Below, piece after piece: positions 13,358 through 19,619 of a DNA stretch of 64,000 nt (within the stretch, counting starts at the first letter, position 1; each line of letters opens with the position of its first letter). The stretch is from assembly GCF_003334765.1 (NCBI RefSeq), contig NZ_QOWT01000005.1, one strand, 5' to 3'. A program made the translations under genes and the position numbers. The notes under the pieces are model-generated. The model was not told the origin of the DNA and ran no database searches. It worked only from the letters and a program-made list of their open reading frames with translations. This DNA comes from Escherichia coli. GTDB taxonomy: Bacteria > Pseudomonadota > Gammaproteobacteria > Enterobacterales > Enterobacteriaceae.

Positions 13358-14050
13358 CTAGTGATAACCACGCGCGGTCATAAAATCCGTAATCGCTTTT
13401 TCTGCATCAATCAGCACCTTTTCCAGTGGCTGATTAGCATCGATATCAACCAGTTGTGCACCACCAAAGGTTAACTGTGGCGTTATGGCTATCTTTCTTG
13501 CCAGCGATTCCCTTTTGTGGTCAGGCTTACGCGCGCAGGCCACGTCTAGATCGACATTGAGTTTGATGACCAGATCAGGTTTATGGCTCGCCATCCAGTG
13601 AAACGCTTTACGTTCCTGGCTTGCCAGCCATGAGACAAAACGACCACCTTCAATGTTAGGTGGGAACACTGTACCATCGTAAGCGCCAGGAATTTGGTCC
13701 TGAGGATAACGGTCGGTTAGAACAATTAACCCGCGACGACGACAGGCAAGCATATGACGAAAGCGCAGTAAGCGACGGGCGACAAACGCTGTAATTACCA
13801 GCGCCGGAACAGGGCCAGGCAATTTTTTTGCTGTTTTCACCTGATTTCGTTCAATTGTTTTATGTAAGGATTTTCCCATGAACGGTAATTTTGTCACTGC
13901 ACGACCGACATTTCCGGCCTGTTTTCCTAAATGAACTCTTTCGGCAGCACCATATTTTTCGACAACGGTAATGAGATGTTCACACACCGTTGACTTGCCT
14001 GAACCATCGCTACCAATAACGGCAATTAATGGAGGTGTTATTGACTGCAT
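13358..14050 (-). CDS. yghT: P-loop NTPase of unknown function (YghT/YghS/YghR paralogue family)
   Basis: 230 aa; Walker [11 protein letters not shown]; shared motifs DRYPQ and ARKPDH with the two downstream paralogues. Confidence 0.8.
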
Positions 14051-14223
14051 GAATATATCCTTTAATTTAAATATCCATTAAAAATATTTATTTGGTTAAT
14101 ATGTTTTTATGAAAGCGTAATTCAGGTCAATGTCACAATTAACCATTGTCACAATAAGGTTGAACGGATATTCTGAGCACGGACCACGTAATATTCAATA
14201 CATTATTTGCTGCCGGGTTTTTC

Positions 14224-14937
14224 GTGAATCAACGTAATATGTCAATAATTAATTCCACGCCAGTGCGTGTTATTGCCATTGTAGGATGTGATGGTTCAGG
14301 TAAATCGACCCTCACGGCAAGCCTGGTAAATGAACTGGCAGCAACAATGCCAACAGAACACATTTATCTCGGGCAATCGTCCGGGCGAATTGGCGAATGG
14401 ATTTCACAGCTCCCTGTTATTGGCGCACCTTTTGGGCGTTATCTGCGAAGTAAAGCGGCACATGTGCACGAAAAGCCCTCCACACCGCCTGGCAATATGA
14501 CTGCGCTGGTTATCTATCTGCTTTCCTGCTGGCGGGCGTACAAGTTTCACAAAATGTTGTGTAAAAACCAGCAAGGCTATCTGCTCATCACCGACCGCTA
14601 CCCGCAGGTTGAAGTGCCGGGTTTCCGCTTTGATGGCCCGCAATTGGCAAAAACCACGGGCGGTAACGGTTGGATAAAAATGTTAAGGCAGCGCGAGCTG
14701 AAGCTGTACCAATGGATGGCGTCTTATTTGCCCGTATTGTTGATTCGTCTTGGCATTGATGAACAAACCGCGTTTGCGCGTAAACCTGACCACCAACTGG
14801 CAGCGTTACAGGAAAAAATCGCCGTTACGCCGCAACTGACATTCAATGGCGCAAAGATCCTTGAACTGGATGGTCGGCAACCAGCCGATGAAATTCTGCA
14901 AGCGTCACTACGCGCAATTCACGCTGCGCTTTCCTGA
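14224..14937 (+). CDS. yghS: P-loop NTPase of unknown function (paralogue 2)
   Basis: 237 aa; Walker A VGCDGSGKST; DRYPQ and ARKPDH motifs. Confidence 0.8.
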   Translation: MNQRNMSIINSTPVRVIAIVGCDGSGKSTLTASLVNELAATMPTEHIYLGQSSGRIGEWISQLPVIGAPFGRYLRSKAAHVHEKPSTPPGNMTALVIYLLSCWRAYKFHKMLCKNQQGYLLITDRYPQVEVPGFRFDGPQLAKTTGGNGWIKMLRQRELKLYQWMASYLPVLLIRLGIDEQTAFARKPDHQLAALQEKIAVTPQLTFNGAKILELDGRQPADEILQASLRAIHAALS

Positions 14938-14968: not shown

Positions 14969-15727
14969 ATGGACGCACTACAAACACAAACTGTTAATAG
15001 TACAACCGCGCCGCAGCCCAACTACATTCCGGGGCTGATTGCGGTGGTCGGGTGTGATGGCACCGGTAAATCCACACTGACCAATGACCTGGTGAAATCG
15101 CTGCAACAACACTGGCAAACCGAGCGGCGCTATCTGGGGCTGCTCTCCGGCGAAGACGGCGACAAAATCAAACGATTGCCGTTGGTTGGTGTCTGGCTCG
15201 AACGGCGACTGGCGGCCAAATCCTCGAAAACCCAAAGCATGAAAACCAAATCTCCGGCGCTATGGGCGGCGGTGATTATGTACTGCTTCTCGCTGCGAAG
15301 AATGGCGAATCTACGCAAGGTTCAGCGACTGGCGCAAAGTGGCGTTCTGGTGGTCAGCGATCGCTTCCCGCAGGCTGAAATTTCGGGCTTTTATTATGAC
15401 GGACCGGGGATCGGCGTCGAACGTGCGACCGGGAAAATCAGCATGTTTCTGGCGCAGCGCGAACGGCGTTTATACCAAAAAATGGCGCAATACCGTCCTG
15501 AATTAATTATTCGTTTGGGGATTGATATTGATACTGCCATCTCCCGCAAGCCTGACCATGACTATGCCGAGCTGCAGGACAAAATCGGCGTCATGTCGAC
15601 GATTGGCTATAACGGCACAAAAATTCTTGAGATTGATTCCAGAGCGCCCTACAGCGAAGTGCTGGAACAGGCACAGAAGGCGGTTTCTCTGGTTGCCATC
15701 GTTTCTGACCGCCGAAGTTTAACTTAA
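14969..15727 (+). CDS. yghR: P-loop NTPase of unknown function (paralogue 3)
   Basis: 252 aa; Walker A VGCDGTGKST; DRFPQ and SRKPDH motifs. Confidence 0.8.
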   Translation: MDALQTQTVNSTTAPQPNYIPGLIAVVGCDGTGKSTLTNDLVKSLQQHWQTERRYLGLLSGEDGDKIKRLPLVGVWLERRLAAKSSKTQSMKTKSPALWAAVIMYCFSLRRMANLRKVQRLAQSGVLVVSDRFPQAEISGFYYDGPGIGVERATGKISMFLAQRERRLYQKMAQYRPELIIRLGIDIDTAISRKPDHDYAELQDKIGVMSTIGYNGTKILEIDSRAPYSEVLEQAQKAVSLVAIVSDRRSLT

Positions 15728-15772: not shown

Positions 15773-17122
15773 TTGGCGGGTTTTAACATCAAACATTGGT
15801 TTGCAGATGGCGCGTTTCGCACCATTATTCGCAATAGCGCCTGGTTAGGCTCCAGTAATGTCGTGAGCGCTTTACTGGGTCTGTTGGCGCTCTCGTGTGC
15901 CGGTAAAGGGATGACGCCCGCCATGTTTGGCGTACTGGTGATTGTACAATCGTACGCCAAGTCGATCAGCGATTTTATTAAGTTTCAGGCATGGCAGCTG
16001 GTGGTTCAGTACGGAACACCAGCATTAACCAACAATAATCCGCAGCAATTCCGCAATGTCGTCTCATTTTCCTTCTCGCTGGATATCGTCAGCGGCGCGG
16101 TGGCGATTGTCGGCGGCATTGCCTTACTCCCTTTTCTTTCCCATTCATTAGGTCTGGATGACCAAAGCTTTTGGCTGGCAGCGCTGTATTGCACGCTCAT
16201 TCCTTCAATGGCTTCCTCCACGCCGACCGGCATTCTGCGTGCGGTAGATCGCTTCGATCTAATTGCTGTACAGCAAGCGACGAAACCTTTTCTGCGCGCA
16301 GCGGGGAGCGTCGTAGCCTGGTATTTTGACTTTGGTTTTGCGGGTTTTGTTATTGCCTGGTACGTGTCGAATCTGGTTGGCGGCACCATGTACTGGTGGT
16401 TTGCCGCGCGCGAATTACGCCGCAGAAATATCCATAACGCCTTCAAATTGAATCTGTTTGAGTCTGCCCGACACATTAAAGGCGCGTGGAGTTTTGTCTG
16501 GTCAACCAACATTGCCCACTCCATCTGGTCGGCGCGTAACTCGTGCAGCACAGTGCTGGTGGGGATCGTGTTAGGACCCGCTGCCGCCGGGTTATTTAAA
16601 ATCGCCATGACATTCTTCGACGCCGCCGGAACGCCAGCGGGTTTACTGGGCAAAAGTTTTTACCCAGAGGTGATGCGTTTAGATCCGCGCACCACCAGAC
16701 CGTGGTTGTTAGGCGTGAAGTCAGGTTTACTGGCGGGCGGAATCGGTATTCTGGTGGCGCTCGCGGTGTTGATCGTCGGCAAGCCGCTTATTTCGCTGGT
16801 GTTTGGCGTTAAGTATCTCGAAGCGTATGACCTGATTCAGGTGATGCTGGGCGCAATTGTGATTTCGATGCTGGGCTTCCCACAGGAGTCATTGCTATTG
16901 ATGGCGGGAAAACAGCGCGCTTTTCTCGTGGCGCAAACCATCGCCTCAATCGGCTACATCGTATTGCTGTTCATGTTCTGTCATCTGTTTGGCGTGCTGG
17001 GAGCAGCGTTTGCTTATTTCGGTGGGCAATGTCTGGATGTGGTGCTCTCGTTAATTCCGACCTTAAAGGCATTTTTTCAGCGCCATTCCTTGCTTTATAA
17101 CGCAGCCGGAGAGAAATCCTGA
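15773..17122 (+). CDS. yghQ: Polytopic membrane protein, MOP/Wzx-like flippase superfamily
   Basis: 449-codon ORF with many hydrophobic helices; apparent TTG start at 15773 (next in-frame ATG would remove the first predicted TM helix); start uncertain. Confidence 0.7.
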   Translation: MAGFNIKHWFADGAFRTIIRNSAWLGSSNVVSALLGLLALSCAGKGMTPAMFGVLVIVQSYAKSISDFIKFQAWQLVVQYGTPALTNNNPQQFRNVVSFSFSLDIVSGAVAIVGGIALLPFLSHSLGLDDQSFWLAALYCTLIPSMASSTPTGILRAVDRFDLIAVQQATKPFLRAAGSVVAWYFDFGFAGFVIAWYVSNLVGGTMYWWFAARELRRRNIHNAFKLNLFESARHIKGAWSFVWSTNIAHSIWSARNSCSTVLVGIVLGPAAAGLFKIAMTFFDAAGTPAGLLGKSFYPEVMRLDPRTTRPWLLGVKSGLLAGGIGILVALAVLIVGKPLISLVFGVKYLEAYDLIQVMLGAIVISMLGFPQESLLLMAGKQRAFLVAQTIASIGYIVLLFMFCHLFGVLGAAFAYFGGQCLDVVLSLIPTLKAFFQRHSLLYNAAGEKS

Positions 17123-17946
17123 TGATGAGAAAATATTTCCCGCTTGAGGCGAGCGAGCGTCTATTTGTTGCAGTTGAAGAAGATGATGTCGTTGATGCAC
17201 AGGTCAGTTTGCCGCCGACTATCGCACTAAGTTGTACCACCGAAATCATCCATGATAATTACGCGTTATGCCTGCAATTCTGGCTCAATGGCGTCAATCG
17301 CCAGGAGTTACTGCGTTTAATATGCAAACAGGCCAAAGGCGATGAGTTGACTGCTGATGAGCGCAAACAATTTAAATACATGCGAGCGCGCTACAAGCAC
17401 CTGCGTTTTGCGCAACGGCTGTATTTAAAGAAGCATCAGGCCGGATTTTTATTCGGCAAAACGACCGTTTTTTTGGGGCGTTTTCAGGACGGTTTTCGTA
17501 ACGGTAAGAAAAATATTGTGTCGTATTACGGCAACTTGTTACGGGTTTATTTAAGCTCTCCGGTCTGGTCGTTGGTGAACTATTCATTACGCCATAGCCA
17601 GTTAGAAAGCGTAAGCGGTTTTATTGCCTATCGGCAAAAGCAAATGCATACCCTGAAAGAGATAATTGCCAAACCGCGACTAACCGGCAGGGAATTTCAT
17701 GATGTGCGAAAAATCATCAGCCAGCAGGTTTCTTATTACGACACCTTAAGATCGCTTGATCCTGAAAATAAAGAGGCGTTACAGATTTCCCGCTTCCTCG
17801 CCGCCATTAATGGCCTGATGGGGGATAAACACGACGACATGGTGGCGGATGATATGGAAAACCGCCAGTCGTATGATGCACCGGTGGCGCTGGATAGCGA
17901 TATTCGCCAGCGCTTAGAGCTGCTGATTTCGCGTTTTCCGCTATAA
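17122..17946 (+). CDS. Hypothetical cytoplasmic protein, no recognisable motifs
   Basis: 274-aa ORF; ATG overlaps yghQ stop (TGATGATG); same strand and tight spacing as flanking genes. Confidence 0.55.
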   Translation: MMRKYFPLEASERLFVAVEEDDVVDAQVSLPPTIALSCTTEIIHDNYALCLQFWLNGVNRQELLRLICKQAKGDELTADERKQFKYMRARYKHLRFAQRLYLKKHQAGFLFGKTTVFLGRFQDGFRNGKKNIVSYYGNLLRVYLSSPVWSLVNYSLRHSQLESVSGFIAYRQKQMHTLKEIIAKPRLTGREFHDVRKIISQQVSYYDTLRSLDPENKEALQISRFLAAINGLMGDKHDDMVADDMENRQSYDAPVALDSDIRQRLELLISRFPL

Positions 17947-17954
17947 CCGGAGCA

Positions 17955-18518
17955 ATGATGTCATCTCGTTTGATTATTGCGCTGATTATCATGCTCTTAG
18001 CCCAGGGTGTGCAGGCACACAATTTCGTCACTGGCAAAACGGTTACCCCCGTTTATATCCAGGAAGGCGGCGAGCTGCTTCTGAATAGCGACGACGAAAT
18101 TCACTACCAAAAGTGGAACAGCACACAGCTGGCGGGAAAAGTCCGCATTATCCAGTATATCGCCGGGCGTAAGTCGGCGAAGAAAAAGAACTCACTGTTA
18201 ATTAAAGCGGTTGAAGCGGCAAACTTTCCGCAGGATCGTTTTCAGCCCACCACCATTGTGAACACCGATGATGCCATCTTTGGTACTGGCTATTTTGTCG
18301 TTGGCAAAATCGAAAAAAATAAACGCCGCTATCCGTGGGCGCAATTCGTTATTGACGGCAATGGACTGGGACGCGTTGCCTGGCGGTTGCCGGAGCAGAG
18401 TTCAACCATTCTGGTGCTGAATAAAGACGGGCAAATTCAGTGGGCAAAGGACGGCAGCCTGACGCCGGAAGAGGTAGATCATGTCATTGCGCTGGCGCAG
18501 AAACTGATCAATGAATAA
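17955..18518 (+). CDS. YtfJ-family periplasmic protein (signal peptide)
   Basis: 187 aa; N-terminal signal peptide (LIIALIIMLLAQGVQA/HN); sequence pattern strongly reminiscent of E. coli YtfJ as I recall it (not verified). Confidence 0.6.
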   Translation: MMSSRLIIALIIMLLAQGVQAHNFVTGKTVTPVYIQEGGELLLNSDDEIHYQKWNSTQLAGKVRIIQYIAGRKSAKKKNSLLIKAVEAANFPQDRFQPTTIVNTDDAIFGTGYFVVGKIEKNKRRYPWAQFVIDGNGLGRVAWRLPEQSSTILVLNKDGQIQWAKDGSLTPEEVDHVIALAQKLINE

Positions 18519-18548
18519 AAAATTCAAAGGATTGAGGGTGTTAGTGAG

Positions 18549-19619
18549 ATGAAGCTGGTTGAACACTACATCATGCGTGGTACGCGCCGTCTGGTGCTGA
18601 TTATCGTCGGTTTTCTGATCTTTATTTTCGCCAGCTACTCCGCACAGCGTTATCTGACCGAAGCGGCAAATGGGACCTTAGCTCTTGATGTTGTGCTGGA
18701 TATCGTTTTCTACAAAGTGCTGATTGCACTGGAGATGTTGTTACCTGTTGGTCTGTATGTGTCAGTTGGCGTGACGCTAGGGCAGATGTATACCGACTCG
18801 GAAATTACCGCTATCTCTGCGGCGGGGGGCAGTCCGGGACGCTTGTACAAAGCCGTTCTTTATCTGGCGATACCGCTAAGTATTTTTGTCACCCTTCTGT
18901 CGATGTATGGTCGGCCGTGGGCTTATGCGCAGATTTATCAACTGGAGCAACAGTCGCAGTCGGAGCTGGATGTTCGCCAGTTGCGGGCAAAGAAATTTAA
19001 CACTAACGATAACGGACGAATGATCCTTTCGCAGACGGTTGATCAGGATAATAATCGCCTGACTGACGCGCTGATTTATACTTCTACTGCCAATCGAACC
19101 CGCATTTTCCGCGCCCGTTCGGTTGATGTGGTTGACCCATCACCTGAGAAACCGACCGTTATGTTGCATAACGGGACCGCCTATCTTCTCGATCATCAGG
19201 GGCGTGACGACAACGAACAGATCTACCGTAATCTGCAATTACATCTGAATCCGCTGGATCAAAGCCCTAACGTCAAACGCAAAGCAAAATCGGTCACGGA
19301 GCTGGCGCGCTCCGCCTTTCCTGCCGATCATGCCGAACTGCAATGGCGACAAAGCCGTGGCCTGACAGCATTGTTGATGGCGCTGCTGGCCATTTCATTA
19401 AGTCGGGTAAAACCGCGGCAAGGGCGATTTTCAACGTTATTGCCACTGACGTTGCTGTTTGTTGCCATTTTTTATGGCGGCGACGTCTGCCGTACGCTGG
19501 TGGCTAACGGTGCGATTCCCCTCATTCCTGGTTTGTGGTTAGTACCCGGACTCATGCTAATGGGCCTGCTGATGCTGGTCGCACGCGACTTCTCTTTGCT
19601 GCAGAAATTTTCCCGATGA
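18549..19619 (+). CDS. LptF-like permease (YjgP/YjgQ family), paralogue not part of the canonical lptFG locus
   Basis: 356 aa; N-terminal TM helices, a periplasmic domain, then C-terminal TM helices, the typical LptF/LptG layout. Confidence 0.7.
   Translation: MKLVEHYIMRGTRRLVLIIVGFLIFIFASYSAQRYLTEAANGTLALDVVLDIVFYKVLIALEMLLPVGLYVSVGVTLGQMYTDSEITAISAAGGSPGRLYKAVLYLAIPLSIFVTLLSMYGRPWAYAQIYQLEQQSQSELDVRQLRAKKFNTNDNGRMILSQTVDQDNNRLTDALIYTSTANRTRIFRARSVDVVDPSPEKPTVMLHNGTAYLLDHQGRDDNEQIYRNLQLHLNPLDQSPNVKRKAKSVTELARSAFPADHAELQWRQSRGLTALLMALLAISLSRVKPRQGRFSTLLPLTLLFVAIFYGGDVCRTLVANGAIPLIPGLWLVPGLMLMGLLMLVARDFSLLQKFSR

Follow-up and report, generated by a model that had tools for sequence, protein, structure and literature searches.

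The window analysed here is a 64,000 nucleotide (nt) stretch of the Escherichia coli chromosome (contig NZ_QOWT01000005.1, RefSeq assembly GCF_003334765.1). It contains two adjacent open reading frames (ORFs), between positions 17122 and 18518, that are real accessory genes of the enterobacterial sphingolipid locus. The queried stretch is 100% identical to that of strain PF9285, where the first ORF is annotated as a 'hypothetical protein' (WP_000985005) and the second as a 'YtfJ family protein' (WP_000098713). The first encodes a 274 amino acid (aa) protein belonging to a divergent CHAD-fold family that is not captured by the Pfam model. The second, here called ytfJ2, encodes a locus-specific, cysteine-free YtfJ paralog, which is recognised here as such. 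Also new is the obligatory coupling of this CHAD-fold family, in sphingolipid producers, to a MOP flippase and to kinases of the thymidylate-kinase-like type.

The gene order is gss-pitB-yghT / yghS-yghR-yghQ-[274 aa]-[YtfJ-like]-lptF-lptG / spt-acp-epimerase-acyl-AMP ligase / yghO-glcC, with the following features.

13358..14050, minus strand: yghT, P-loop kinase of the thymidylate kinase (dTMPK) superfamily, divergent from the operon (RefSeq)
14146..14174, plus strand: promoter-like site upstream of yghS, candidate operon promoter (consensus scan)
14224..14937, plus strand: yghS, dTMPK-superfamily P-loop kinase, gene 1 of the operon
14969..15727, plus strand: yghR, dTMPK-superfamily P-loop kinase
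15773..17122, plus strand: yghQ, MOP-superfamily (Wzx/MurJ-type) flippase, full length at 449 aa
17122..17946, plus strand: 274-aa gene, product basic, all-helical, CHAD-fold and predicted to be cytoplasmic; translationally coupled to yghQ
17958..18518, plus strand: ytfJ2, predicted periplasmic YtfJ-family paralog with a cysteine-free thioredoxin fold; alternative start at 17955
18549..19619, plus strand: lptF2, LptF paralog (TIGR04407, 320 bits)
19616..20695, plus strand: lptG2, LptG paralog, last gene of the operon (TIGR04408, 305 bits)
20693..20727, no strand: strong hairpin of 16 pairs between the convergent lptG2 and spt
20730..24817, minus strand: spt-acpR-cerR-aasR, dihydroceramide synthesis operon (RefSeq; BL21 orthologs ECD_02851-02854)
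25188..26330, plus strand: yghO, acyl-CoA N-acyltransferase, homolog of bacterial ceramide synthase (PMC9386255 lists 'aca: CC_1154, yghO ECD_02850')

Seven plus-strand genes, yghS-yghR-yghQ-[274 aa]-ytfJ2-lptF2-lptG2, form an operon with intergenic gaps of -4 to 45 nt. An earlier note, made from the sequence of this DNA, had placed both ORFs inside an operon, and this is where they lie. The promoter-like site upstream of yghS has 9 of 12 consensus matches, which is no better than the shuffled expectation. The hairpin at the other end is probably a bidirectional terminator. An antisense ORF of 92 aa (16971-17249, minus strand) runs across the yghQ/274-aa junction; this frame has nothing to support it and most likely arose by chance opposite two conserved genes.

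These genes make up the dihydroceramide locus already described in the literature, whose Lpt paralogs are also known. In E. coli BL21 the five dihydroceramide genes are spt, acpR, aasR, the epimerase-like cerR, and yghO, several of which have been studied biochemically (PMC9386255). The two ORFs are drawn in published maps without an assigned role, and a literature search found no paper on the 274-aa protein and none that connects YtfJ or yghR/S/T with sphingolipids. Some database names in this region appear over-specific or wrong, such as 'dTMP kinase' for YghT and YghS and 'LPS export ABC transporter permease LptF/LptG' for lptF2 and lptG2. The K-12 yghO is named 'putative DNA-binding transcriptional regulator' despite being a ceramide synthase homolog.

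The stretch with both genes was found in 4110 of 5426 complete E. coli genomes, with approximately 24% being without it. In K-12 MG1655 (3124000-3140000, equivalent to window positions 16840-25200) there is an IS5 (insH9) between yghO and a truncated yghQ of 355 aa instead of 449, and the 274-aa gene through to aasR are all missing. The K-12 yghQ is cut short by the IS5, therefore the published K-12 yghQ phenotypes are those of a truncated gene.

The 274-aa gene and the fold of its product

The ATG of the 274-aa gene (17122-17124) overlaps the TGA of yghQ (17120-17122), as the earlier note had read it; the overlap is a single base, and there is a GGAG 9 nt upstream. Compared to orthologs from other Escherichia species, the ratio of nonsynonymous to synonymous substitution rates (dN/dS) is 0.06-0.07. 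There are 344 homolog clusters at 90% identity and 207 at 50% identity, these being mostly full-length at 270-300 aa. A lack of conservation in related genomes, which would have marked the ORF as spurious, was therefore not what was found. The idea of a spurious frame draws on the lack of any Pfam or NCBIfam match and the annotation as merely 'hypothetical', and is left with virtually no probability by the dN/dS of 0.07, by full-length homologs down to approximately 20% identity in several proteobacterial orders, and by a very confident structure prediction. It is ruled out by the strong purifying selection.

The family was scanned for in one genome per species using 20 closer sequences; the 81-sequence alignment was unusable for this, containing no sufficiently conserved stretch. 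Within the Enterobacterales the family is present in Escherichia, Pseudocitrobacter, Hafnia, Serratia, Sodalis, Pantoea, Erwinia, some Citrobacter, Klebsiella indica, Rosenbergiella, Tatumella, Rahnella, and Mangrovibacter. It is also found in the Xanthomonadales (Luteibacter, Rhodanobacter, and Dyella), in many Sphingomonadales, in Acetobacteraceae, and in one betaproteobacterial metagenome-assembled genome (MAG). These groups are known, or have been predicted, to produce sphingolipids through the proteobacterial pathway. In Luteibacter the gene is present as a tandem duplicate and a gammaproteobacterial MAG has two copies (L045 9692-11760, L052 9119-10819, and L082 5501-8678). One contig labelled as the alphaproteobacterium Martelella alba (L038, NZ_SZPQ01000026.1) carries a full enterobacterial-type locus in a Serratia-like order, with a 274-aa protein that is 62% identical and has the UniRef name 'CHAD domain-containing protein'; the assembly is probably mislabelled or contaminated.

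The predicted structure of the 274-aa protein is all-helical, with two four-helix bundles related by pseudo-twofold symmetry. When the family profile was compared to the PDB, the best solved match was the Ricinus CHAD protein 6qv5 (E = 0.0028), with both halves collinear and the R/K/H motifs aligned with those of CHAD. The 81-sequence alignment has invariant R88, D123, H193, and R196, and nearly invariant K92, R95, H105, G119, K197, N230, M233, G234, H237, D238, and Y251. Within the family, the N-terminal half can be aligned in register with the C-terminal half: K85-x2-R88-x3-K92-x2-R95 pairs with H193-x2-R196-K197, and G119-x2-Q-D123 pairs with G234-x2-H-D238, an internal twofold duplication of the kind described for CHAD. 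Pfam CHAD (PF05235) matches 3 of the 81 sequences at E <= 1e-3 and 22 at E <= 0.1. A conserved N-terminal extension, residues 1-77, is outside the CHAD core. Homology of the family to CHAD is therefore likely, and structural and linkage statements on the proteins of this locus are made with high confidence. CHAD domains bind polyphosphate and tripolyphosphate, and mutations in their H-x2-R-x3-R motif abolish binding (PMC6537752). We infer, on the basis of sequence, that the 274-aa protein also binds a ligand.

Several results count against this assignment. The window's own 274-aa sequence has no match in Pfam or NCBIfam, and does not reach significance with the Pfam CHAD profile. A phmmer search of the PDB with this sequence returned nothing useful, Foldseek gave a weak CHAD match (E = 0.23), and hhalign of the family profile with a single E. 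coli protein, the 'short' CHAD YgiF, gave nothing. In addition, there are no PPK1, PPK2, PPX, or CYTH genes among the neighbours, as would be associated with CHAD.

The conserved histidines and aspartates (H105, H193, H237-D238, and D123) could instead be those of a catalytic protein, either a metal-dependent His/Asp phosphohydrolase or phosphotransferase or an HPt-like histidine phosphocarrier. This is very improbable, given that the CHAD crystal structures show binding activity alone and no conserved metal site (PMC6537752), and that generic helical bundles outrank any HD-domain or HPt protein.

The 274-aa protein is basic, with a pI of 9.2. It has neither a signal peptide nor a membrane segment, its maximum 19-residue hydropathy being 0.82, and the proteins it is conserved with are the kinases YghR/S/T and YghQ, a flippase facing the cytoplasm. 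The 'periplasmic lipid handling' that the earlier note had suggested for it is therefore inapplicable and is excluded.

Linkage to a flippase and to kinases

A linkage search was made over 78 loci, which were queried with the window's own proteins. A yghQ-like ORF on the same strand ends between -11 and +77 nt from the start of the 274-aa match in 67 of the 68 loci that have sufficient upstream sequence. Four-base ATGA overlaps between the yghQ-like gene and the 274-aa homolog are found from Escherichia to Novosphingobium. Nearly every one of the 78 loci has two or three YghR/S/T-like kinases, and the linkage of flippase, 274-aa homolog, and kinases spans the alpha-, beta- and gammaproteobacteria. 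In the Sphingomonadales the unit is kinase-kinase-flippase-[274-aa homolog], with spt and lptFG being outside 10 kb. A few loci have kinases but no flippase detected in the fetched sequence (Carnimonas, and a beta- and a gammaproteobacterial MAG), some of these contigs being short. The accessory role in the lipid pathway that the earlier note had proposed for these ORFs is well supported by this conserved gene order.

YghQ matches the MOP flippase model NF007773 (E = 8e-9), and its orthologs match Pfam Polysacc_synt. Its Caulobacter counterpart is the candidate flippase CC_1166 (PMC11324152). YghR, YghS, and YghT match the dTMP kinase model TIGR00041 below threshold, at E = 1e-5 to 4e-8 (4.4e-8 for YghR), with the match in YghT spanning most of its length. 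Single-sequence PDB searches with these proteins were uninformative and only the family profile reached solved relatives, the best of which are thymidylate kinases (E of approximately 1e-5). All three retain the Walker A, DR and lid motifs. These matches place them in the thymidylate kinase superfamily as divergent members.

Fusion proteins and a variant locus bear on the kinase link. Two proteins, P0371 and P0388, have an APH/choline-kinase-type domain (Pfam APH, E = 2e-8) followed by two copies of the 274-aa domain. These and P0373 (L008 1082-4033) are metagenomic proteins of approximately 980 aa with an N-terminal hydrophobic leader and the kinase motif HGDLKPxNLFFD. In a further metagenomic protein of 564 aa, P0244, two copies of the domain are fused head to tail. 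A metagenome contig (L006 7464-13259) has a 274-aa homolog of 27% identity with two YghT-like kinases and a convergent MOP flippase. To these it adds a homolog of LmtA, the Leptospira lipid A 1-phosphate O-methyltransferase (E = 5e-33), and a CofC/MobA-like nucleotidyltransferase, a type also represented by CC_1153 in the phosphosphingolipid pathway of Caulobacter.

The search for further neighbours in the non-enterobacterial loci returned mostly antisense shadow ORFs of GC-rich genomes. The genuine extra neighbours are an RND pump and, in Novosphingobium-type loci, a two-component system. Just upstream of the kinase-flippase unit, approximately 3 to 4.5 kb before the 274-aa homolog, 14 non-enterobacterial loci (L059-L073, mostly from Novosphingobium and other Sphingomonadales) have conserved genes for a histidine kinase and an OmpR-type response regulator, which may regulate the unit.

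What varies least among these loci is the position of the 274-aa gene directly after yghQ, its start overlapping or abutting the yghQ stop (67 of 68 loci). Together with the conserved N-terminal extension outside the CHAD core, this would suit a 274-aa protein that is a structural or regulatory partner of YghQ alone, as a plug, chaperone, or gate, with neither a phosphate polymer nor a phosphorylated head group as the contact of its CHAD-like basic surface, which would instead touch the flippase or phospholipids of the membrane. This explanation is considered unlikely, although its probability is appreciable. Loci L057, L079, L082, and L086 have the kinases with no flippase nearby, the fusions of the 274-aa domain are to kinases and not to transporters, and the conserved residues are the ligand-binding motifs of CHAD.

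The presence of paralogous dTMPK-superfamily kinases beside a CHAD-fold protein is also the arrangement of a polyphosphate kinase. In Sulfolobus, a crenarchaeon, PPK3 was recently shown to consist of two thymidylate-kinase-like paralogs whose operon also encodes a CHAD protein (PMC12995831). The kinases YghR/S/T and the 274-aa protein could be a true PPK3-type system that makes or consumes inorganic polyphosphate and is loosely tied to sphingolipids, for example in local phosphate or energy supply. The parallel in gene content, the superfamily of the kinases, and the CHAD fold speak for this. It is nevertheless improbable. Neither ppx nor sixA is present in the locus, and the three kinases all keep their Walker A, DR and lid motifs, with no division into a catalytic and a regulatory member. 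The module is also limited to sphingolipid-producing lineages, where it shares an operon with Lpt paralogs and a lipid flippase, and E. coli already has PPK1.

YtfJ2, a cysteine-free paralog

The YtfJ-like ORF is 187 aa when read from 17955. The RefSeq start is the second ATG at 17958, giving 186 aa, and this is better spaced from the GGAG at 17949-17952. The protein scores 216 bits with TIGR01626 (cutoff 151.1) and matches PF09695 (YtfJ_HI0045) at E = 1.9e-59 over model positions 3-159 of 160, so the earlier note was correct on the family, with a curated cutoff exceeded and a full-length match. What the likeness does not extend to is the K-12 ytfJ gene itself, since this is a second, locus-specific paralog and has no cysteine. 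The signal peptide noted earlier is typical in its sequence features: MSSRLIIALIIMLLAQGVQA|HNF fits the A-x-A rule, with an R in the n-region and a hydrophobic core, and the residues of the cleavage site (A-x-A|HNF) are conserved across the family. YtfJ2 is therefore predicted to be secreted or periplasmic. Periplasmic lipid handling, as the earlier note proposed, is a reasonable candidate role for YtfJ2.

YtfJ2 has a thioredoxin fold, with G70-R71-x-S73-A74-K75 at the position of CxxC. It contains no cysteine at all, which makes redox chemistry impossible and rules it out as an oxidoreductase.

The protein is 55% identical to K-12 YtfJ (b4216) and its gene has a dN/dS of 0.14. Of 5426 complete genomes, 5416 have the canonical ytfJ, between ytfI and ytfK, and 4110 have the locus copy. 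Most strains therefore hold both, at different sites, and the locus copy is a paralog. The promoter of canonical ytfJ is sigma-E dependent, as part of the envelope-stress response (PMC4447067). Canonical YtfJ is a tight family in the Enterobacteriaceae, of at least 82% identity, and outside of this group the locus-linked and canonical proteins are not cleanly separated in a neighbour-joining tree. In 43 of 44 Enterobacterales loci ytfJ2 is directly downstream of the 274-aa gene, even where the positions and strands of spt, lptFG, and the kinases differ, and none of the 34 loci from other orders has the gene. Two ORFs take the place of a single ytfJ2 in Erwinia endophytica and Serratia sp. M24T3, and yghS is also split in Tatumella morbirosei (L020 10973-11661, L027 10910-11480, and L030 1030-1759); these are possible pseudogenes or sequencing errors.

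YtfJ2 might have no specific part in sphingolipid biology and be a redundant YtfJ copy with a general envelope function that is simply carried along with the locus. The canonical gene is a core gene that is also present in sphingolipid-free strains, the tree does not part the two kinds cleanly, and the loci of other orders lack ytfJ2, all of which would fit. A small but real probability is given to this, with the retention of ytfJ2 behind the 274-aa gene despite rearrangements, the purifying selection upon it, and its loss together with the locus in K-12 arguing for a role tied to the locus.

A possible export pathway and comparison with known systems

A pathway can be tentatively proposed in which these proteins handle a phosphorylated sphingolipid; as a whole, it is given a little below an even chance. 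YghR/S/T would phosphorylate ceramide, possibly repeatedly, at the cytoplasmic face of the inner membrane. The duplicated basic site or cavity of the CHAD-like protein would bind either the phosphate-rich head group or a donor in the form of oligo- or polyphosphate, making this protein a non-catalytic partner that couples the kinases to YghQ and is kept stoichiometric with it by translational coupling. YghQ would then flip the lipid. MOP flippases usually move undecaprenyl-pyrophosphate-linked substrates, which a pyrophosphate-type head group would resemble. In the Enterobacterales, YtfJ2 may bind or trim the anionic head group in the periplasm via R71/S73/K75, and LptF2G2 with LptB would extract the lipid toward the outer membrane, as proposed for Caulobacter. 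The APH fusions, the PPK3 operon, and the LmtA and CofC-like genes of the L006 contig speak for the link between kinases and the 274-aa domain. Also in favour of the pathway are the purifying selection on both genes, the large size of the 274-aa and YtfJ families, the linkage to flippase and kinases, the family, fold, lack of cysteine, and position of YtfJ2, the sigma-E promoter of canonical ytfJ, and the action of the Lpt paralogs in Caulobacter sphingolipid transport.

Other points weigh against the pathway. Caulobacter makes and exports anionic sphingolipids with no homolog of the 274-aa protein or YtfJ2, therefore neither is generally required. YghR/S/T show no specific affinity to PPK3, the match to 2plr/5h70 (E = 0.006) covering only the P-loop, and the locus has none of the classical polyphosphate genes ppk1, ppk2, and ppx. 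Members of the YtfJ family are also found in genomes free of sphingolipid genes, such as K-12, therefore its core function is broader than sphingolipids.

A further extension is speculative and has a low probability. E. coli, other Enterobacterales, sphingomonads, acetic acid bacteria, and some Xanthomonadales might make an undescribed oligo- or polyphosphorylated sphingolipid. Candidate products are a ceramide pyro- or triphosphate or a polyphosphate-capped ceramide, with YghR/S/T adding the phosphates, the 274-aa protein as the phosphate-chain-binding subunit, and YtfJ2 as a periplasmic receptor specific to the Enterobacterales. If true, a PPK3-like kinase/CHAD system would have been repurposed for membrane lipid synthesis, and a MOP flippase would be used because of the pyrophosphate-type head group.

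The complete sphingolipid locus is found in approximately three quarters of the E. coli sequenced, BL21 and uropathogenic strains among them. Published work reaches as far as the synthesis of dihydroceramide in E. coli and, in Caulobacter, the LptF2G2 step. The core defined here, of kinases, MOP flippase, and CHAD-like protein, plus the YtfJ paralog in Enterobacterales, provides gene targets for the middle of the pathway. A phosphate-rich head group is a testable chemical hypothesis for the head-group and flipping steps of proteobacterial sphingolipid export. The CHAD fold is extended from polyphosphate granule biology into a membrane-lipid setting, and the orphan YtfJ family gains its first consistent functional association.

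Of the known systems, CHAD proteins (PF05235; 6QV5 of Ricinus, 3E0S/6QV7/6QVA of Chlorobium, and 6RN5, the Streptomyces PptA) share with the 274-aa protein the two four-helix bundles and their pseudo-twofold symmetry, the length of the 'long' form (approximately 275-300 residues), the basic overall charge, and the duplicated basic-helix (H/K-x2-R-x3-K/R) and G-x2-(H/Q)-D motifs. The 274-aa protein differs in being missed by the Pfam model and in its conserved N-terminal extension of approximately 75 residues. Its gene is alongside a lipid flippase and dTMPK-like kinases in sphingolipid producers, rather than CYTH/TTM triphosphatases, PPK, or PPX. The PPK3 operon of Sulfolobus acidocaldarius (saci_2017-2021; PMC12995831) likewise has several thymidylate-kinase-like paralogs beside a CHAD-type protein. 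In contrast to its catalytic/regulatory pair, the sphingolipid locus has three apparently intact kinases, and it has flippase, Lpt paralog, and ceramide synthesis genes in the same locus.

Caulobacter crescentus shares the logic of the locus, with ceramide synthesis, head-group genes, a MOP-type flippase, and LptFG paralogs in one place. Its LptF and LptG paralogs form a complex, bind LptB, and are needed for sphingolipid transport, and their deletion is tolerated only in the absence of anionic sphingolipid synthesis. These findings are from a preprint of April 2026 (10.64898/2026.04.12.717747), which also draws the E. coli UTI89 locus and states that LptC2 occurs in Caulobacter only. The Caulobacter head group is made via CpgA/B/C, CC_1152, CC_1153, and CC_1158, which are of other families, whereas E. 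coli is without the Cpg genes and LptC2. Homologs of the 274-aa protein, YghR/S/T, or YtfJ have not been reported from Caulobacter. The 274-aa protein and YghR/S/T were rejected as homologs of the Cpg enzymes, CpgB being of the diacylglycerol-kinase type. As the missing LptC2, a beta-jellyroll with an N-terminal membrane anchor, YtfJ2 was rejected for its thioredoxin fold and the 274-aa protein for being all-helical and cytoplasmic.

The TlpA/DsbE(CcmG)/ResA oxidoreductases and the peroxiredoxins have a catalytic cysteine where YtfJ2 has the conserved G-R-x-S-A-K. The closest comparison for YtfJ2 is K-12 YtfJ (b4216; PF09695/TIGR01626), with which it has in common the family, length, predicted signal peptide, and conserved motifs. 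The K-12 ytfJ is located elsewhere, while ytfJ2 is co-inherited with the sphingolipid genes.

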